A stretch of 64,000 nucleotides of DNA, from IMG/VR virus record IMGVR_UViG_2799113139_000004. One strand, given 5' to 3'. The position numbers and the translations under genes are program-made. This DNA comes from a virus. Lineage: Duplodnaviria > Heunggongvirae > Uroviricota > Caudoviricetes. The notes beneath the pieces are model-generated. The model was not told where the DNA came from. It saw only the letters and a list, made by a program, of their open reading frames with translations, and did not search any database. Positions 338 through 61,863 of the stretch are shown piece after piece; position 1 is the stretch's first letter; each line of letters starts with the position of its first letter.

Positions 338-832
338 TCATTTAACCGCTTTCGCCCTGGTTGTCCGCGTCGTCGTCTTCGCGGTCACTCGTCGCGTCGT
401 CGTCTTCGTCACCGGTTCCGGTTTTGTCTTGGAGCCCACGACTTTTGGGGCAACGTCATCGTCCTCCGTGTGCGAGCTGAATCTGACCAGTTCGCGCAGG
501 ATGGATAGGGCGGCGCTCAGTTGGTTGTCGTCGAGCTGATTGATGCCCGGTGGCAGCATCGCTTCGAGACGTGACTCGTTTTCGTTGATCGACATACCGA
601 GTGACCGACCGATGGCGAGAAGGACGATAGACGTCTTCACGTTGAGCGTCTTGCTGATGGCCTCGATCGTTTCCGGCTCGGGGAACACCTTGATCTCCCG
701 GCCGCTGGCGAACTGCCACCAACGCTGAGCCGAGATGGCGCCACCGCACTCAACCTCCAGCTCGTTGTAGGAGCGCGTGCCCTTCAGTGACGAAACAAGA
801 TCCTGTAAAGCCATGCCCTCGGATGATGCCAT
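338..832 (-). CDS. HTH (XRE-like) DNA-binding protein; candidate immunity repressor
   Basis: 164-aa ORF with an N-terminal helix-turn-helix segment (LQDLVSSLKGTRSYNELEVECGGAIS) and a basic low-complexity C-terminal tail. It is divergent from a Cro-like HTH gene across a 214-bp region rich in CTAGTA half-sites. Confidence 0.6.
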   Translation of the reverse strand: MASSEGMALQDLVSSLKGTRSYNELEVECGGAISAQRWWQFASGREIKVFPEPETIEAISKTLNVKTSIVLLAIGRSLGMSINENESRLEAMLPPGINQLDDNQLSAALSILRELVRFSSHTEDDDVAPKVVGSKTKPEPVTKTTTRRVTAKTTTRTTRAKAVK

Positions 833-1046
833 GTGAAACCCCTTCTACTCTCTCGGTCGTCGGTAGCTAGTAGTTAGCACCGTCTCATGGAGGAGATTCT
901 ACTGGTTTATGCGCTAGTGACTAGTGGTTGCTGAAGCCTATAACACCACAGCTCAACATGTGGGCTTTGGTTAGTCCGCGCGTTTGAAGTGCTAGTAACT
1001 TCGCTGGCGCGCCTAATCCAGTGGTTGACAGTCATAGTGCTAGTAA
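833..1046. promoter_or_regulatory. Divergent repressor/cro switch region with multiple CTAGTA/TCTACT operator half-sites
   Basis: 214-bp intergenic region between oppositely oriented HTH genes. Repeated half-sites are present (ttctactctc, ctagtagtta, attctactgg, ctagtgactagtgg, gctagtaact, gctagtaatt). Confidence 0.5.
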
Positions 1047-1400
1047 TTGATGATCAACGCATCCCGTTCAATCATCAGTCACCTCGTCTTCGAGGGGCGA
1101 AGGAGCGCAACCGTGGGCCGCAACGTCACATCAGTACAGGTCAAAGACCTGGGGCTGTTGCGGCACCTCGTAGGACCGGAGCCGGGCAAAGTGATGTCTG
1201 CGACGACGCTTGCACGTCGAATCGGCAGGCACCGTTCGTTTGTCGGGCATCTACTCAGTGGCGACCCTGATCGCTGCCGCACGTTCTCGGTTGAAGTGGC
1301 ACAAGCTATTTCGGTGGCGCTCGGCGTCAAGATGTCGCTACTTTTTCAGCCCGCGATATCAACCAGTAGACCTATAAATGTCTACCATGAGGCCGGCTGA
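1047..1400 (+). CDS. Cro-like HTH DNA-binding protein
   Basis: 117-aa ORF with an HTH segment (MSATTLARRIGRHRSFVGHLLSG), divergent from the repressor. The true start is uncertain. Confidence 0.5.
   Translation: MMINASRSIISHLVFEGRRSATVGRNVTSVQVKDLGLLRHLVGPEPGKVMSATTLARRIGRHRSFVGHLLSGDPDRCRTFSVEVAQAISVALGVKMSLLFQPAISTSRPINVYHEAG
1354..1378 (+). promoter_or_regulatory. First copy of the 25-bp element CGATATCAACCAGTAGACCTATAAA
   Basis: Lies within the 3' end of the Cro-like ORF, immediately upstream of the excisionase-like/methyltransferase operon. Confidence 0.45.
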
Positions 1401-1635
1401 CATGACCGACGTAGACGACAACGCAGTCGTTCAGATGGAGCCGATCTTCGTCGGCAAGAAGACCGCGGCGAGGGCTCTCGGGGAGATCTCGATGAACAAG
1501 CTGAATGAACTCATCAGAGCTGGGCGCATAAACCCCCGGATTCTGGACGGTCGCGTGATGTTCGCACCCGAGGAGCTTCGTAGGTTTGCTGCTGACCTAC
1601 CCTCTTGGGAGCCACCCGATAGCCGGGGTGTCTGA
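1378..1635 (+). CDS. Excisionase-like / MerR-type HTH DNA-binding protein
   Basis: 85-aa ORF with an HTH segment (AARALGEISMNKLNELIRAGRI), typical of Xis-like DNA-binding domains. Confidence 0.5.
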   Translation: MSTMRPADMTDVDDNAVVQMEPIFVGKKTAARALGEISMNKLNELIRAGRINPRILDGRVMFAPEELRRFAADLPSWEPPDSRGV

Positions 1636-8844: not shown

Positions 8845-8913
8845 CCGGCATCGTCCGGTGAAGGGCATACGTGCGTCGTGCGTATGAACTACTGGTAAGA
8901 AAAGGATGAACCA

Positions 8914-9779: not shown

Positions 9780-11071
9780 GCGACTACGCCAGTTTCCTTG
9801 CGCGCAAGCAGCGAAAGCCCGCCAGGCGCGGCCCGAGTATCGAACAGATGGCGCTTCACCCGTCGCTGCACGAGTGGCAAGCACGCATCACCGAATGGGC
9901 GATAAGCACTCAGCGCGCGGCGATCTGGGCCGACACTGGTCTGGGCAAGACGCGCATGCAGATCGAGTGGGCGCGCATGTCCGGTAACTCGCCGCTGATC
10001 GTGGCACCGCTGGCAGTCTGCGCTCAGACGGTCGCTGAGGCCGAGAAGATCGGTGTCGAAGCGCGGTTCGTGCGCAACGGCGACGAGATCACCGGGCCGG
10101 GCATCATCTCTGTCACCAACTATGAGCGCGTCAGCTCAATGCCGGCATCCAAGATCGACGCGGTGGTGCTCGACGAATCCAGCATCTTGAAGCAATCGGA
10201 CGGCAAGACGAGAAACCTTCTCATCGAACACTTTCAGAACGTGCCAGCGCGTCTGGCCTGCTCGGCGACGCCGGCACCCAACGACCCCGAAGAGCTGACC
10301 AATCAGTCGGAGTATCTAGGGCGCATGGCGCGTAATCACATGCTGGCCGCGTACTTCGTCCACGACAAGGACGGATGGCGACTCAAAGGGCATGCGCGCG
10401 GTCCGATGATCGACTGGATGTCTTCGTGGGCGCTGGCCATCCGGCGGCCGTCAGACATCGGGGGCGACGATGCTGGATATGTGTTGCCAGGCTTGGAGAT
10501 CAAGCCAGAGCTGATACCCGCAGACATGTCCGGCGCGCTCGTTGGTCCCGGTCCACTCGGCGGTGTGACCGAGCGTGCGCGACTACGGCGAGAGACGCTG
10601 ACAGCTCGCGTCGCGCGTGCTGCTGAGCTGGTGGCCGCCGAACCCGATGAGCCCTGGCTTCTGTGGTGCGGCCTGAATGATGAGGCCAACGCACTGGCCG
10701 CGGCGATACCCGGCGCGGTCAACGTCCACGGCGCGATGAGCCCGGAAGAGAAGGCTGAGCTACTGCTTGGCTTCGCGGCGGGTGACTACCGCGTGCTGAT
10801 CACCAAGCCATCGATCGCGTCATTCGGAATGAACTTCCAGCACTGCGCACGCATGGCCTTCGTCGGCCTCGGCGACTCGTACGAGCAGTACTACCAGTCG
10901 ATTCGGCGCTGCTATCGGTACGGCCAGACGCGCGTGGTGCACGCCCATGTCGTGTTGTCCGAACTCGAAGCGGCCATTGCAGAGAACGTCATGCGCAAGG
11001 AACAGCAGGCGTCAGAGATCACCAGCGCACTCATCGAACGAGCAGCACTGAACGGAGCCGTGGCCGCATGA
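9776..11071 (+). CDS. SNF2/DEAD-like superfamily II DNA helicase
   Basis: Walker A (ADTGLGKT), DExx box (VVLDESS) and a C-terminal helicase domain (HGAMSPEEKAELL ... YRYGQT). Confidence 0.7.
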   Translation: MSDYASFLARKQRKPARRGPSIEQMALHPSLHEWQARITEWAISTQRAAIWADTGLGKTRMQIEWARMSGNSPLIVAPLAVCAQTVAEAEKIGVEARFVRNGDEITGPGIISVTNYERVSSMPASKIDAVVLDESSILKQSDGKTRNLLIEHFQNVPARLACSATPAPNDPEELTNQSEYLGRMARNHMLAAYFVHDKDGWRLKGHARGPMIDWMSSWALAIRRPSDIGGDDAGYVLPGLEIKPELIPADMSGALVGPGPLGGVTERARLRRETLTARVARAAELVAAEPDEPWLLWCGLNDEANALAAAIPGAVNVHGAMSPEEKAELLLGFAAGDYRVLITKPSIASFGMNFQHCARMAFVGLGDSYEQYYQSIRRCYRYGQTRVVHAHVVLSELEAAIAENVMRKEQQASEITSALIERAALNGAVAA

Positions 11072-12042
11072 TGGAGAATCTGGACGAGTATCGCGAGGAT
11101 GAGGCGCATGGGTCGAATTGGTCGCTGTACCTTGGCGACTCGTGCGAGCGGCTGGCCGAATTCGACACGGAAAGCATCGACTTGACGGTCTGCTCGCCAC
11201 CGTTCGACAGCCTGTACACCTACTCGCCGTCGATGCGTGACCTCGGCAACAGCAGCTCGCGCATCGAGTTCCTGGACCATTACCGCTTCATCGTCGAGCA
11301 TCAGCTACGCATCACCAAGCCGGGACGTAACGCGTGCGTTCACGTCCAGCAGATAGCGACGAAGAAGGCTGTAGACGGGTATGTCGGCCTGACCGACTTC
11401 CGCGGTGACGTGATCCGGCTGTTTCAGTCGGTCGGCTGGATCTACTTCGGCGAGGCGACCGTCTGGAAGAACCCGCAGGCGCAGAGCATTCGGACCAAGA
11501 GCCAGCAGCTCACCTTCACGTCCAAGAACCGCGACAGTGCGCGCATCAGGCCGGCGCTGGCCGACTACCTGCTGATCTTCAAGAAGCCCGGAGAGAACGC
11601 TGTACGCATCCCGCATGAGGTCAACGCGGGCGAGGTCACCAACGATGACTGGATCGAGTGGGCAGCGCCGATCTGGGAGGACCGGCACGACGGCGGCTGG
11701 CTGACCGAGGATGGCCACATCTGCCGGGTCTGGTACGGCATCCGCGAGACAGACACGCTCAACGTGCGCGTAGCGCGAGAGTCGGCCGACGAGCGCCACA
11801 TCTGCCCGCTACAGCTCGGATTCATCGACCGATGCGTCAGGCTCTACTCCAATCCCGGCGAAACGGTTCTGACGCCGTTCGCGGGCATCGGGTCGGAGCT
11901 GTACCAGTCGGTGAAGCTCGGCCGCCGCGCGATCGGCATCGAGCTGAAGCCGTCGTACTGGCAGACCGCAGTAGAGAACATGACGCGCCTCGATGGTGAA
12001 CTTGCAGCGTCGTCAACGCTTTTCGATGAGGCAACGTCATGA
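11068..12042 (+). CDS. DNA methyltransferase (beta-class N6-adenine or N4-cytosine)
   Basis: SPPF catalytic motif (DLTVCSPPFDSLY) precedes the C-terminal AdoMet motif FAGIGSE, the order typical of the beta class. Confidence 0.8.
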   Translation: MMENLDEYREDEAHGSNWSLYLGDSCERLAEFDTESIDLTVCSPPFDSLYTYSPSMRDLGNSSSRIEFLDHYRFIVEHQLRITKPGRNACVHVQQIATKKAVDGYVGLTDFRGDVIRLFQSVGWIYFGEATVWKNPQAQSIRTKSQQLTFTSKNRDSARIRPALADYLLIFKKPGENAVRIPHEVNAGEVTNDDWIEWAAPIWEDRHDGGWLTEDGHICRVWYGIRETDTLNVRVARESADERHICPLQLGFIDRCVRLYSNPGETVLTPFAGIGSELYQSVKLGRRAIGIELKPSYWQTAVENMTRLDGELAASSTLFDEATS

Positions 12043-12251: not shown

Positions 12252-12943
12252 CCATCGGATACTTCACCAGTTGCGCGGCATGCGGCGAGCTGTTGCGCAT
12301 CGAGCGTGACGACCAGCGCATTCACGACACCTGTGAGGAGCCGTTGCCGTCGCGCGCCGACGTGTTGCAAATGGAACTGCGCGCGTGCGTCTACATGGGT
12401 GATCAACAGAAGCTCGAAGCGGAGATCATCGCCGAACTCGACCAGATCGAGAGCCGACCACCGAACCTGGGGCTAGCGGCGGTCACGTACGCCACCGAAT
12501 ACGGCTGGCCAGTGTTCCCGCTGCTCCCAGGCGGCAAGAAGCCGGCCATCCCGAAGAGCGCTGGCGGCAATGGATTCAAAGACGCGACGACCGACGTCGA
12601 ACGCATCAAGAAGTTCTGGACCAAGAACCCGACGTGCAACATCGGCGTGCCGACCGGCATTCACTTCGACGTGATCGACGTAGACCCACCGAACGGCATG
12701 CTGTCGTATCTGGAGCTGGTAGGCGATGGTCTGCTGCCCGAGGTGCATGGACAGGCCAGGACGCCGCGTGGGCTGTTCCATCTGTTCATAGAGCCGACCG
12801 GCGACGGGAACTCGGCCGACATGAAGCCCGGCATCGACTACCGCGGAGCGGGCGGTTACGTCGTCGTCGCACCATCGATCGTCGGTGAGCAGCGGTATCG
12901 ATGGGCGGTCAAGCCCAGTCCGAAACTTAAACCAGTGGGGTGA
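12248..12943 (+). CDS. Bifunctional primase-polymerase (prim-pol) N-terminal domain protein
   Basis: GWPVFPLLPGGKKP ... NIGVPTG ... VIDVD motifs match the prim-pol domain; N-terminal Cys cluster. Confidence 0.6.
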   Translation: MTIGYFTSCAACGELLRIERDDQRIHDTCEEPLPSRADVLQMELRACVYMGDQQKLEAEIIAELDQIESRPPNLGLAAVTYATEYGWPVFPLLPGGKKPAIPKSAGGNGFKDATTDVERIKKFWTKNPTCNIGVPTGIHFDVIDVDPPNGMLSYLELVGDGLLPEVHGQARTPRGLFHLFIEPTGDGNSADMKPGIDYRGAGGYVVVAPSIVGEQRYRWAVKPSPKLKPVG

Positions 12944-13034
12944 TACACATCACCCAGTAGTTCATAGATGTAGTAGAGTGCTCTACTAGCCGAGCTTCGG
13001 CACATCACAACAATCCCAGCGGAAGAGGGACGAA
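12944..13034. promoter_or_regulatory. Regulatory region with palindromic operator TAGTAGAGTGCTCTACTA and GGTGAT..ATCACC inverted repeat
   Basis: The palindrome at 12971-12988 matches the consensus seen at 58577-58596 and 61535-61554. An A/C-rich leader plus SD lies upstream of 13035. Confidence 0.5.
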
Positions 13035-13352
13035 ATGAACAGACAGAACGAATGCACGGATCACGTCCACGTCTCTATCAAGGAGATCAGCGACGAGGTT
13101 CTTCTTGAGATCTGGCTCGACGGATTCGCGAGCGGCGCGATGTCGTTGATGGCGAATGCGATCGACGGTGATCCTGACGGTCCGACCGAAGAGCGTCAGC
13201 TTGAGCTAGCTCATGCGATGGTCGCGTCGCTCATGAACGACCCTGTGGCGGTAGCGACCACGCGCAAAAACATCTTCGCGCGCATGACTGTCGGCAATCT
13301 CGCTGCTGGCGTGACCAAGATCGACTCAGGCAAGAAGGTCAAGCAGTCATGA
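13035..13352 (+). CDS. Hypothetical protein
   Basis: Strong SD (ggaagagggacgaa ATG); 105 aa. Confidence 0.5.
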   Translation: MNRQNECTDHVHVSIKEISDEVLLEIWLDGFASGAMSLMANAIDGDPDGPTEERQLELAHAMVASLMNDPVAVATTRKNIFARMTVGNLAAGVTKIDSGKKVKQS

Positions 13353-13690
13353 GGGGCAAGATGATCGCTGCGGTCATCGCTGTCGCGTCAGCGCTCGCGC
13401 TACCGATGCCAGCACCGACCGCGAGCGCTGAACCCGGATGCGAAACAGTGCTCTGGGGATTCCTCGGTCCCCAGCGTCGCACGCTGTGTGATCAACCGAG
13501 GCGTGGTGCTCAGTGGACGCGTCTGCGCGTCATCTGGACGCCAGCGCATCAGGTCCCCATGACCTGCTCGGGTCGCTACTACGTGACCTGCTGGGGTGGG
13601 TACTTCGTCGGTCAGTCCGAGCAGTCGCGCGAGACGTATCCCGTGACTGACGACACCGTGTTACCTGACGAGCCGGGCTACTTGCGTTAA
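13349..13690 (+). CDS. Secreted protein (signal peptide) with 6 Cys
   Basis: N-terminal signal peptide (MRGKMIAAVIAVASALALPMPAPTASA), then a Cys-containing mature region. Confidence 0.5.
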   Translation: MRGKMIAAVIAVASALALPMPAPTASAEPGCETVLWGFLGPQRRTLCDQPRRGAQWTRLRVIWTPAHQVPMTCSGRYYVTCWGGYFVGQSEQSRETYPVTDDTVLPDEPGYLR

Positions 13691-13699
13691 GTCAGCTCT

Positions 13700-13724
13700 C
13701 GATATCAACCACTAGACCTATAAA
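13700..13724 (+). promoter_or_regulatory. Second copy of the 25-bp element CGATATCAACCA[G/C]TAGACCTATAAA (promoter/operator-like)
   Basis: 24/25 identical to 1354-1378. Contains a TATAAA -10-like hexamer and a CAGTAGAC/CACTAGAC operator-like half-site. Confidence 0.5.
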
Positions 13725-13892
13725 CAACAACTAGCGCAACAAGATTGGAAAGAAACCATGGTGCAGAAGAGGACTCTCAAGTGGTGGGCCAAGCGCATTC
13801 GCGTTCGGTGAGCAGCCCAACCCACCCGTCATCACGTCGATCTACGCGGAGACGATCGCGGCGCTCGGCTTCGACCCGAAGGCGTTGTGGTC

Positions 13893-14153
13893 ATGAGCAA
13901 TTCACCGTTTAGCCCAGACGCTAGCGCCGAGGCTGTGGTCTGGTACAGCGAGATCTCGAAGGGTATCGATCAGATGGTCGAGGACCACAAGCTGATCGCA
14001 GACGAAGAGCATCGCGAGCTGGGTTGCCGCTTCACGTCGACCCTTCTGAACGCCACCTACAAGTCGGCAGGCCTGAAGGAAAGCGATCTGATCGATCTCT
14101 TCGTGGTCGCGGTGGATCGTCTTGCGCAACAAGCGAAGGAGGCAGTCAAGTGA
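13893..14153 (+). CDS. Hypothetical protein (tandem paralog 1)
   Basis: ATG at 13893 (GTG at 13887 also possible). The C-terminus (LIDLFVVAVDRLAQQAKE) is homologous to the next gene. Confidence 0.5.
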   Translation: MSNSPFSPDASAEAVVWYSEISKGIDQMVEDHKLIADEEHRELGCRFTSTLLNATYKSAGLKESDLIDLFVVAVDRLAQQAKEAVK

Positions 14154-21477: not shown

Positions 21478-21525
21478 ACTACACTTGACACTGCACCTCT
21501 TCCGCTGGTGCAGTTGTTGTGATGG

Positions 21526-21560
21526 CGAAGGCCCTCCGTGCAAACGGGGGGCCTTCGTTC
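21526..21560 (+). terminator. Stem-loop terminator candidate
   Basis: GAAGGCCC-loop-GGGCCTTC hairpin downstream of 21477. Confidence 0.4.
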
Positions 21561-21685
21561 GTCTGTGGCTCAACCGAGGCGCGCCGTTAACGTCTTCAAT
21601 AAACCAGTGGTACTAGACACGTCGTACACTGGGCTACTGACAGATCCATCTCAAAATCAGGTCCAGGCCCCTGCGGGAGGCGATT

Positions 21686-23110
21686 TTGGCTGCATCAGTG
21701 CTGATAGATGGGGTCGAGTTCATTCCGTCGTACAGATCGGAACGGCCGCGGGTTGGTGTAGCCATCACGACACGCAATCGCCCCGACGTTCTCAAGACGA
21801 CGCTCGAACATATTCGACAGTTCACGCCTGACGCACTGGTGGTTGTCGTAGACGACGCCTCAACACCACCAGCACCCGAGGCGACCTACCGATTCAGCGA
21901 ACGCGCGGGCGTCGCCGCAGCCAAGAACAAGTGCATCGAGCTGCTGATGGACGCCGGTTGTACCGAGCTGTTCCTACTCGATGACGACTGCTACCCGATC
22001 ACCCAAGGCTGGGTCGATCAGTACATCGACCATCCCGAGCCGCATCTCTGCTATCTCTTCAAGACGCTGGACGCGAACGGCAAGCCAGTCGGCACGCCGG
22101 CCACCATCTACGAGGACAGTCGAACCAAGGCGTTCGATCACCCGATGGGCTGTCTGCTCTACATGAACCGCAGCGTGATCGAGCGGTGCGGTGGGATGCG
22201 AACAGTCTTCGGCGTGTGGGGCCATGAGCACGTCGAGTACAGCATTCGGATCAACAACAGCGGCCTGACCACCAATGCTTTCCAGGACGTCGCCTGGTCG
22301 TATCAGTACATCTACTCGATCGATGAGCACTGGTACAAGCATCCTGAGTTCAAACGAAGCGTCAGCGATCGCGAACGAAGTGCGCAGATCGCACGCAACG
22401 ACGAGATCCTTGACGGGATGCGCGAGAGCACAGTCGGTTTCGTGCCCTACCGACAGCTCGGCAACGAGGTCATCACCACCATGTTGACGAGAGTGGTTGA
22501 CCCGCAGCGCAAGAATGCGGCGAAGCTGACGACGAATGACTTCGCAGCCTGGCGCAAGTCGATCAAGGGTGCCAAGTCCGTCATTCTGACTGATGCGCCG
22601 TGTGAAAGCGATGGCGGTGAGTTTGCGAGCGTTGAGCACGGCCTGAATCCGTATCTCCAACGCTGGATCGTCACCTATCACCACCTGCGCGAGCATGAGA
22701 GCGCATGGGTATGGGTCACTGACGGAACTGACGTCGAGATGCTGAGCCAACCATGGCTGATCATGAAGCCGGGCACGCTGTATGTCGGTTACGAGCCAAC
22801 GGTTCTGGACATTCCATGGATGCGGCAGAACCATCCGCCGTATCAGCAGTGGATAACAGAGAACGGCGATCTTCAACTACTCAACGCTGGCGTGGTCGGC
22901 GGCGATCACGCGACGGTTCTCGAGTTCAGCTCCGACATGGTGCGCGAGATCTTTCGCGTCGGACCTGGCGCAGTGAAGGGTGACATGGCCGCGTTCAACT
23001 ACGTTGCGCGGTCGCCCAAGTGGCGCGACAGGATCGTATGGGGTAGTCGCTGGCTGACGACGTTCAAGGCCAACGAACGCAACGACTGGAGCGTCTGGAA
23101 GCACAAATGA
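21686..23110 (+). CDS. Glycosyltransferase (GT-A fold, family 2-like)
   Basis: VGVAITTRNRPD, VVVDDAS and the DxD motif LLDDDCYP. Confidence 0.7.
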   Translation: MAASVLIDGVEFIPSYRSERPRVGVAITTRNRPDVLKTTLEHIRQFTPDALVVVVDDASTPPAPEATYRFSERAGVAAAKNKCIELLMDAGCTELFLLDDDCYPITQGWVDQYIDHPEPHLCYLFKTLDANGKPVGTPATIYEDSRTKAFDHPMGCLLYMNRSVIERCGGMRTVFGVWGHEHVEYSIRINNSGLTTNAFQDVAWSYQYIYSIDEHWYKHPEFKRSVSDRERSAQIARNDEILDGMRESTVGFVPYRQLGNEVITTMLTRVVDPQRKNAAKLTTNDFAAWRKSIKGAKSVILTDAPCESDGGEFASVEHGLNPYLQRWIVTYHHLREHESAWVWVTDGTDVEMLSQPWLIMKPGTLYVGYEPTVLDIPWMRQNHPPYQQWITENGDLQLLNAGVVGGDHATVLEFSSDMVREIFRVGPGAVKGDMAAFNYVARSPKWRDRIVWGSRWLTTFKANERNDWSVWKHK

Positions 23111-55362: not shown

Positions 55363-55445
55363 AACCCGTAAACCTACGGGACTATGAGTGTCAACTACCG
55401 GCCTAGATTTGAACCCAGAGACCCCGACAACGCTCTGGAGTATCA

Positions 55446-58545: not shown

Positions 58546-58648
58546 CACTAGTAGAACTGTCTACTACTCTAGCAGACTAGTAGACATGTCTACTAGGTGG
58601 TTGCGAGAATGACCTGCAGGTTCGTTGCTCCTTAGTAGACACGCCTAC
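58546..58648. promoter_or_regulatory. Operator cluster: TAGTAGAACTGTCTACTA, perfect palindrome CTAGTAGACATGTCTACTAG, and TAGTAGACACGCCTAC
   Basis: Three copies of the TAGTAGAC..GTCTACTA motif in a divergent intergenic region (58532-58690). Confidence 0.6.
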
Positions 58649-58690
58649 CGATCGCGGAACTAGACTGAGAGGCGAGATCTGGAGGACACT

Positions 58691-61237: not shown

Positions 61238-61269
61238 AGGTGGTCGAGATTGCTCCCGACCACCTGGCG
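61238..61269. promoter_or_regulatory. Perfect inverted repeat CCAGGTGGTCG-N10-CGACCACCTGG
   Basis: 11-bp arms; lies just past the stop of the minus-strand 61274-61465 gene. Confidence 0.35.
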
Positions 61270-61273
61270 TCTG

Positions 61274-61465
61274 CTAGTTGGTCAGCAGATCTTCGCCTTG
61301 CTCGATTTGCTCAAGCTCTGTCTCCAGTCGTTGCACCTCGGCAACGAGAGCACGAAGCTCGCGTTTGCGATTTGCAATCTTCTGGGTGACGACTCTGCGC
61401 CGCTGGCGCAGAGTAGCAAGAGCCTCGTCGCGGCTCATCCCCTCGGGAAGTTGAATCATGTTCAC
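61274..61465 (-). CDS. Small coiled-coil protein
   Basis: 63 aa; start GGAGG SD-like (aggaggtgaac ATG on the minus strand). Confidence 0.45.
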   Translation of the reverse strand: MNMIQLPEGMSRDEALATLRQRRRVVTQKIANRKRELRALVAEVQRLETELEQIEQGEDLLTN

Positions 61466-61534
61466 CTCCTTCTGTTTCCGCTAGTCGTTGTTGTGATTGA
61501 CACCTTGTCGGTGTCGTCTTCGACAGTAGCACAG

Positions 61535-61652
61535 CTAGTAGACAAGTCTACTGGTTTGACGAGTATTTCTATGAACTAGTGATAAATGGTACGTCTACTG
61601 CTGGACCTATGCGGCAGGTTTCAGCAGATAGTAGACTGATCTACCATCTACC
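61535..61652. promoter_or_regulatory. Operator cluster: CTAGTAGACAAGTCTACTGG, GTCTACTG half-site, and TAGTAGACTGATCTAC
   Basis: Same motif family as at 58546-58648 and 12971-12988; divergent intergenic region 61466-61671. Confidence 0.55.
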
Positions 61653-61671
61653 CCGAGAGAAGGAGGACGAC

Positions 61672-61863
61672 ATGTCCGAGATCATTCGTTTGCGTGACGA
61701 TGACGGTGACCAGCTCGTCGTTGAGCACGAAGGCAAGGCCCAGCACTTCACGTTTCGAGTGGTGGACCCGGACGGTAATCACATGGCCGCCTACGTGCCC
61801 TATGCCGACGCGGCCGCGCTGGTGACGACGATCAGCGAGACCTTGACGGAGGCGGTGGGGTGA
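61672..61863 (+). CDS. Hypothetical protein
   Basis: ATG with a strong SD (gagaaggaggacgac ATG); 63 aa. Confidence 0.5.
   Translation: MSEIIRLRDDDGDQLVVEHEGKAQHFTFRVVDPDGNHMAAYVPYADAAALVTTISETLTEAVG

Follow-up and report, generated by a model that had tools for sequence, protein, structure and literature searches.

A 25-base repeat in a MabR prophage of Mycobacteroides abscessus belongs to a family of asymmetric, putative operator sites

The stretch of viral DNA analysed here (64,000 nucleotides, referred to as the window) matches Mycobacterium phage prophiFSQJ01-1 (BK061312.1; FSQJ below) at 100% identity over its first 16 kb. FSQJ is a cluster MabR prophage whose host is Mycobacteroides abscessus, and window positions are obtained by subtracting 1847 from positions in its record. 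The leftward gene for the immunity repressor, gp3, is separated by a 280-bp intergenic region from the rightward cro gene, beyond which lie xis and a long early operon (Table 1). Further along this operon, gene 26 (13349–13690) encodes a protein with a signal-peptide-like N-terminus and a CDGP domain (E = 1e-14); the other four MabR prophages lack this gene. The site of gene 26, between the Prim-Pol region and the second copy of the repeat described below, is an insertion hot spot, where the MabR prophage prophiFSAT01-1 (FSAT) carries three extra genes. A palindrome-bearing gap is found upstream of gene 25. The helicase/methyltransferase segment at 9912–11993 is 76% identical to Gordonia phage GMA1 and is absent from other MabR prophages, which points to a recent exchange between host genera.

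A 25-base element occurs twice on the + strand of this region, as CGATATCAACCAGTAGACCTATAAA in copy 1 and CGATATCAACCACTAGACCTATAAA in copy 2. The two sequences are identical at 24 of 25 positions, and the pair is thus as the first-pass annotation had given it, with one difference between the copies. When up to three mismatches are allowed, these are the sole matches in the window, and no match is found in 100 dinucleotide-preserving shuffles. With an 11-nt seed, no other direct repeat of 20 nt or more turns up in the first 22 kb. Local alignment lengthens the repeat 8 nt leftward to 33 bp, with 30 of 33 positions identical and a score that none of 1000 shuffles reached; outside these 33 bp, the flanks resemble each other no better than shuffled sequence does. 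Scanning viral contigs for an exact 21-mer returned zero matches. A 15-mer scan of genome contigs, using a pattern too short for 596 Gb, returned single matches in unrelated taxa among the matches listed.

Copy 1 lies within the last 47 nt of cro, directly before xis, and is coding: it specifies Cro residues ...QPAISTSRPIN (codons 81–89), and the extra 8 nt of the 33-bp repeat encode the conserved FQPA of this protein. The 25-mer of copy 2 begins 10 nt past the gene 26 stop codon, in a 196-bp stretch without an annotated gene. Both copies are on the transcribed sense strand, 24–33 nt upstream of start codons. The gene contexts described earlier, with copy 1 at the end of cro and copy 2 between a secreted-protein gene and a block of small genes, are therefore borne out. 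The small ORF that follows copy 2 (13758–13896), unannotated in the record, is a frameshifted homologue of McProf gp25: one frame reads MVQKRTLKWWAKRIRVR up to a stop codon, the +1 frame holds the C-terminal ...TIAALGFDPKALWS, also ending in a stop, and an additional T is present near 13809. The frameshift may be programmed, may stem from a sequencing error or may mark a pseudogene.

Table 1. Positions of the genes, predicted promoters, repeat copies, family sites and palindromes (window coordinates unless stated otherwise)
Feature	Position	Strand	Remarks
Immunity repressor gene, gp3	338..832	-	Left end of window; candidate binder of the sites
Six family sites	863..1052; 17-nt windows at 863, 895, 917, 988, 1014, 1036	-	Repressor–cro intergenic region
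Predicted repressor promoter, TAGTCA-16-TAGAAT	896..923	-	Consensus scan
Predicted early lytic (cro) promoter, TTGACA-18-GATGAT	1025..1054	+	Hexamers invariant in 5/5 MabR prophages
cro (gp4)	1113..1400	+	Other candidate binder
Copy 1	25-mer 1354-1378; extended 1346..1378	+	In cro 3' end, 24 nt 5' of xis ATG
xis (gp5)	1402..1635	+	Gene after cro
Weaker family site	8883..8899	+	Gene 18/19 gap; position conserved in 5/5 genomes
Two weaker family sites, AACCAGTGG (12930) and CATCACCCAGTAGTTCA (12948)	12930..12964	+	Gene 24 end and gene 24/25 gap
Copy 2	25-mer 13700-13724; extended 13692..13724	+	Leader of small ORF, after gene 26
Weaker second site, AACAACAACTAG	13723..13734	+	19 nt 3' of copy 2 core; 2 mismatches to ATCAAYYASTAG
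Weaker family site	21598..21614	+	Putative late operon start; ~10 nt upstream of TANNNT (TACACT)
Weaker family site	55389..55405	+	Gap before sliding-clamp gene; positional equivalent of McProf 56873
Family site, AACCAGTAGAC	61544..61560	-	Right arm of palindrome, divergent regulatory region
18-bp palindromes, window	12971-12988, 58549-58566, 58578-58595, 58633-58650, 61536-61553, 61629-61646		
18-bp palindromes, McProf record	34939, 34963, 60218, 60244, 63860, 63952		

We compared the same two positions in four MabR relatives, McProf, prophiFVLQ01-1, prophiFSIL01-1 and prophiFSAT01-1. These four are near-identical to one another, so the comparison comprises two independent lineages. The cro–xis junction is kept in all five genomes, and Cro has 95 residues in each. 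At both positions, the four relatives share a sequence unlike that of FSQJ, TCAAYTACCAGRCAAYGA. The cro tail reads GATATCAACCAGTAGACCTATAAA in FSQJ versus ATCATCAATTACCAGACAACGACG in the relatives, and the position of copy 2 corresponds in the relatives to a 55–65-nt gap before a 42-codon gene, with the sequence ATCAACTACCAGGCAAYGAAT. Because the best local match between cro tail and gap in each relative is this same element (14/17 to 22/29 identical; reached by 0–15 of 1000 shuffles), the pairing of the two positions is, as judged by alignment, a cluster-wide feature of MabR, with a sequence that differs at both positions between the lineages. By our own count over the aligned 25-mers, the two positions of one genome are more alike (24/25 in FSQJ and 17/25 in McProf) than the orthologous positions of different genomes are (12/25 and 16/25). 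Only 3 of the 14 Cro residues encoded at the copy 1 position are kept between lineages, whereas the motif bases are kept. Since there are only two independent lineages, the apparent concerted change rests on one contrast, and gene conversion alone could be its cause. A search for more lineages with the Band-7 protein and Cro recovered only the four known MabR relatives and unrelated clusters. No homology is seen among the MabR genomes to the left of the gap copy; homology begins at about the element, and the element of copy 2 is, in these alignments, the left edge of a conserved module.

Sequence comparison indicates that copies 1 and 2 are members of a MabR-specific family of asymmetric sites of about 12–20 bp. 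The core of the family is TCAAYYASYRG, which takes the form (T)CAACCA[G/C]TAG in FSQJ. It has no dyad symmetry, and sites occur singly or as tandem direct copies. The window contains 11 AACCASTRG cores against 0.93 +/- 0.98 expected, a number that none of 100 shuffles reached, and by our own assignment 8 of the 11 lie in or beside regulatory gaps. The immunity region accounts for three of them, on the - strand, and the two copies for another two; others, at 12930, 21602 and 61548, adjoin regulatory gaps. Among the six sites of the repressor–cro intergenic region, four fall on its predicted promoters: site 1014 covers the -35 hexamer of the cro promoter, site 1036 lies between the -35 and -10 hexamers of this promoter, and sites 917 and 895 cover the repressor promoter.

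A position weight matrix was built from these six intergenic sites only, in a register chosen after the element had been seen. Applied to the rest of the 64-kb window, it ranked copy 2 first (20.2 bits) and copy 1 second (18.0 bits), with the next hit at 13.3 bits; 0 of 20 Markov-simulated windows reached 18 bits. Twelve hits outside the immunity region score 10 bits or more, and 11 of them are co-directional with the local genes (own assignment). About six sites outside the immunity region are convincing, and the distance from motif to start codon ranges from 30 to 110 nt across family members. The att and integrase regions contain no family site, the att core excepted. The description of the pair as a 'duplicated module' understates this arrangement, in which the family keeps its positions across MabR and the copies are its two best matches. 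A further suggestion of the first-pass annotation, that the copies carry a sequence resembling an operator half-site, holds in a wider sense: the copies belong to a statistically supported asymmetric family concentrated in the repressor–cro intergenic region, but the 8-mer CASTAGAC alone is not enriched (6 sites versus about 3 estimated from base composition).

In McProf, an exact 12-mer, ATCAAYTACYAG, occurs four times versus about 0.01 estimated from base composition: in the spacer of the cro promoter, on the - strand and flanked by its -35 and -10, in the cro tail, in the gene 19/20 gap and in the gap before gene 25. Near matches are present in three further gaps, and every intergenic site points with the downstream gene. 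On the + strand of McProf, 5 of 11 AACTACC are in the non-coding DNA, which makes up 5.3% of the sequence. A degenerate form of the motif occurs 5–7 times per MabR locus. The figure is about 0.6 per locus in 44 loci from M. abscessus prophages outside MabR, which share the early genes with MabR but lack its immunity cassette. Across these prophage clusters, the motif is thus seen to track the immunity cassette.

The two lineages differ in how their sites are related to one another. In the relatives, the intergenic sub-family has its own longer consensus, ATCAACTACCRGGCAA, unlike the sites of their immunity region, with the core ACCRGG in intergenic members versus ACTAG in immunity-region sites. 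A matrix made from the McProf immunity-region ACTAG sites did not rank the FSQJ copies highly, and the strong score in FSQJ therefore depends on FSQJ-specific sites. The sites at the cro promoter are almost alike in both lineages; those near the repressor promoter and the two copies carry changes specific to FSQJ, with AACCASTAG versus AACCACGAG or TTACCGGTA in the relatives. Distant Cro homologues, about 43% identical, were found in short Logan assemblies (L182, L183, L186 and L188). The palindrome TGCCTAGTNNTAGGCA lies there between the -35 hexamer TTGACA and the -10, where MabR has the non-palindromic GCTAGTARTTGATGAT. This clade was set aside as support for the family, as its operator is palindromic and its cro tail has no convincing site. 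In the 4.7-kb contig of L182, all six CTAG are in the repressor–cro intergenic region or the cro tail.

These counts bear on the possibility that the repeat has no function and is the relic of a recombination or gene conversion event, in which a short patch was copied from one place to another where two modules meet. An identity of 30/33 is more than a single binding site needs, and includes the 8 nt that encode FQPA; copy 2 also sits at the right edge of the insertion hot spot, where gene 26 is specific to FSQJ and FSAT has its extra genes. A relic would nevertheless leave unexplained the related sequence at both positions in all five genomes, the 11 cores where one is expected, mainly in regulatory DNA, and the overlap with the cro promoter. 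We consider this origin very unlikely as a full account of the repeat.

The copies were proposed earlier to be a duplicated early promoter with TATAAA as its -10 hexamer. In the mycobacterial -10 consensus, TANNNT, the T at -7 is defining. Both hexamers that could serve as a -10 at the copies, TATAAA and TAGACC, are without this final T, and there is no -35 hexamer 16–18 bp upstream of TATAAA at either copy. A consensus promoter scan of the first 18 kb called only 1025–1054, 923–896 and 312–284, with nothing at either copy. The hexamer is not conserved: four related prophages have CAAYGA in place of TATAAA, and the gap at copy 2 contains no TANNNT in any of the five MabR genomes. The 25-base repeat is thus probably not a promoter, and the earlier claim is not upheld. 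An antisense promoter that would use TTGATA on the - strand of the element was also rejected by inspection, as no -10 lies at the right spacing.

This promoter–operator module, in which TATAAA is the -10 and each copy starts a transcript (from xis onward and across the small-gene block), would account for several observations. TATAAA is rare, with four occurrences on the + strand and none on the -, and two of the four are inside the copies; both copies are upstream of gene starts; a TANNNT (TACCAT, 1383–1388) lies just 3' of copy 1; and the family site at 21598, following terminator-like hairpins, is at the -35 place for a TANNNT, as read in both FSQJ and McProf. TACCAT, however, reads TACCAA in the relatives, and the variable distance from motif to gene start fits a promoter poorly. 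Together with the missing hexamers and the silent scan, these points make such a module quite unlikely.

The two terminator-like hairpins in question (about 21490–21514 and 21527–21556, read by eye) are in the interval 21478–21697. They are followed by the family site and by TACACT at 21625–21630, with TATCAT at the same place in McProf. This interval looks like an early/late boundary with a late promoter that has no -35 hexamer.

Signals linked to promoters or acting in RNA could also be expected to lie upstream of genes and to point with transcription. Signals considered in the early transcript are nut- or put-like antitermination, RNase processing, or a translational operator in the leaders of xis and of the small ORF. 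Both copies are suitably placed on the sense strand a short distance 5' of start codons, and copy 1 is just past the body of cro, as is lambda nutR. The A/C-rich leader that contains copy 2 is unusually unstructured, being less structured than its shuffles (z = +1.9). Copy 1 with its flanks folds into a hairpin of -18 kcal/mol (z = -3.0), but this hairpin is specific to FSQJ and missing from copy 2 and from McProf, whose sites are unremarkable in folding (z = -1.1 and +0.1). We found no fold common to both copies and no conserved stem–loop of the boxB/put type. Rfam gave nothing relevant, with a sub-threshold match to the sRNA BjrC68 (E = 0.24) over the terminator-like hairpins at 21478–21697. 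The motif also occurs in the immunity region on the other strand, ahead of the predicted repressor promoter, and would not be transcribed there in that sense. An RNA-level function for the repeat appears remote, the least probable of the readings considered here. The outer stem of the copy 1 hairpin (1346–1400) pairs CAGCCCGC with GGCCGGCUG and takes in the GAGG ribosome site of xis. This hairpin might limit xis translation.

The candidate binders of the sites are the repressor gp3 and Cro. The FSQJ gp3, a member of phrog_12831 ('transcriptional repressor'), is only 47–50% identical to its counterparts in the four relatives, with AISAQRWWQFASG versus VVKAQRWNQITNG in the putative recognition region. 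Cro (gp4) is 65–68% identical to its relatives, with three differences in the putative recognition-helix stretch. Because gp3 has diverged and the Cro helix is nearly conserved, while FSQJ-specific changes are found near the repressor promoter and in the copies, the lineage-specific site changes lean towards gp3 as the binder, in what is one contrast only. A profile of the five MabR repressors matched no PDB chain at E up to 10, where we assume the TipsytheTRex repressor to be included. The AlphaFold2 model of gp3, made with two sequences, has a pLDDT of 43, and a word-indexed protein search for the repressor returned two clusters only.

The sites might instead be bound by another DNA-binding protein and serve a purpose unrelated to immunity; candidates are an activator of middle or late transcription (e.g. 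the MerR/Xis-like gp45), the excisionase gp5 or a host factor. Both gp5 and gp45 have HTH_17 domains, the family precedes several transcription units, including the putative late operon start after the terminator-like hairpins, and in the relatives the consensus ATCAACTACCRGGCAA is unlike that of the immunity-region sites. The exact motif nevertheless lies in the spacer of the cro promoter, from -35 to -10, where operators for a repressor or Cro are classically found, and it tracks the immunity cassette across prophage clusters; the lack of family sites in the att and integrase regions outside the att core argues against an excisionase. We regard a different binder as unlikely. Integrase arm sites, Xis sites, iterons, DnaA boxes and boxA were each rejected on position or on a poor match.

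The explanation that we favour, at about even confidence, is that the copies are extra putative operators for the repressor gp3, for Cro gp4 or for both, which would serve as stoperator-like roadblocks or as looping partners. In the lysogen, repressor bound to the site at the end of cro and to the site after gene 26 would stop RNA polymerase escaping from upstream. Copy 1 would keep xis and the genes downstream of it off if transcription leaks past cro, and copy 2 would keep polymerase that has passed the variable, moron-like region from reading on into the small-gene block. The copies might also cooperate with the main operators through DNA looping, and Cro could use the same sites, damping early transcription. 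The 30/33 identity would then reflect recent gene conversion or duplication on top of binding-site constraint; cro would be the likely donor, since the conserved FQPA is encoded by the additional 8 nt. In the McProf lysogen, gp3 is strongly expressed and the early genes gp4–47 are absent from the 16 genes reported as expressed (PMC8191103). Against this explanation count the small number of sites, the low rank of the FSQJ copies with the McProf matrix, the differing cores in the relatives and the palindromic operator of the distant Cro clade.

Among known systems, the arrangement comes closest to the stoperators of Cluster A phages such as L5, Bxb1 and TipsytheTRex, which are asymmetric and phage-specific, are found both in short spaces between genes and at the promoter for early lytic transcription, and are oriented with transcription (PMC9283540). 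MabR sites are likewise asymmetric (about 13 bp in the Cluster A criterion), phage-specific and oriented with transcription, and the same motif is present at the cro promoter (1014 and 1036) and in gaps or gene ends (1357, 8883, 12930, 12948, 13703, 21598 and 55389). Cluster A genomes, however, have more than 20 sites each, whereas we count about 5–11 for MabR, with 11 AACCASTRG cores in 64 kb. The Cluster A repressors (L5 gp71 and that of TipsytheTRex) are monomers with an HTH and a Stoperator domain, whereas gp3 has no detected homology to solved structures. The MabR site at the cro promoter is also, unlike in Cluster A, opposite in orientation to the intergenic sites. By this analogy, the MabR sites are best described as working like Cluster A stoperators; we do not call them a member of that group because neither the number of sites nor repressor homology agrees with it.

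Other phages provide partial parallels. Downstream auxiliary operators inside a cro-like gene are known as O_D in the mor gene of TP901-1 and as the asymmetric O_R3 of phi105. Copy 1 is similarly operator-like and inside the first lytic gene, a few hundred bp from the main operators; its score with the immunity-region matrix (18.0 bits) and the presence in the McProf cro tail of the exact 12-mer of the cro promoter agree with this comparison. Copy 2 differs in being 12.7 kb from the promoter, and the repressors are unrelated. In phage P1, dispersed and asymmetric C1 operators are bound by one repressor and each overlaps a promoter. The MabR sites are also non-palindromic and scattered over the genome, but neither copy shows an evident promoter. 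Lambda nutR/nutL and HK022 put are short elements repeated in early transcription units, one of them next to cro. The MabR element is likewise short and repeated with one copy adjoining cro; it differs in having no conserved hairpin, in that both copies are in the same operon, and in that the motif is also found on the non-transcribed strand at promoters.

The regulatory sites of mycobacterial prophages outside Cluster A are almost unmapped, and the paper describing the MabR cluster says nothing of promoters, operators or intergenic repeats. If the sites are targets of the repressor or Cro, they set the specificity of immunity in a prophage family that is common among clinical M. abscessus. 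They would in that case account for the silence of xis and the lytic genes, provide a second, independent case of dispersed, oriented repressor sites, and be of use in engineering lytic derivatives and in predicting superinfection immunity. A broader and more doubtful proposal, which we put forward tentatively, is that MabR prophages of the M. abscessus complex have independently evolved a stoperator-like network that silences their lytic genes, with a repressor unrelated to those of Cluster A acting at the cro promoter, within the cro end and between genes, an orientation-dependent block to elongation, and sites that co-evolve with repressor specificity and double as module boundaries. If the sites are not repressor or Cro targets, the pair is an ordinary short repeat at a module boundary.

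A second group of elements in the window consists of 18-bp palindromes, TAGTAGAC-N2-GTCTACTA, with 7 sites versus 0.07 expected, mostly in divergent promoter-like regions at the right end. McProf has the form TGGTAGAC-N2-GTCTACCA, in which position 2 of the half-site switches from A to G between lineages in every half-site. The HTH protein adjoining the palindromes (gp91; gp89 in McProf) is nearly identical over a C-terminal stretch that we take to be the HTH. Because this stretch is nearly identical between lineages and the repressor is only 47–50% identical, the pattern suggests that the palindromes are bound by the repressor or by another diverged regulator.

At the right end, the annotated + strand genes 96 and 97 (61250–61863) probably overlie a divergent regulatory region. 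A - strand ORF at 61274–61465 encodes a coiled-coil-like protein of 63 aa and has a strong ribosome site, GGAGGTG; on the + strand, the gene start is more plausibly the ATG at 61673, after GAAGGAGG. The 207 bp between the - strand ORF and this ATG contain two palindromes and two family sites.

The gene 18/19 gap contains a hairpin or inverted repeat, CATACG-N9-CGTATG (8866–8886), with a 3' arm that overlaps the family site. The corresponding McProf repeat at about 11446–11472 is GATACG-N9-CGTATC, so that relative to the window the outer pair is changed on both sides. A second element 24 nt downstream in the same gap, ATGAAC/ATCAAC, shows the same change between lineages.
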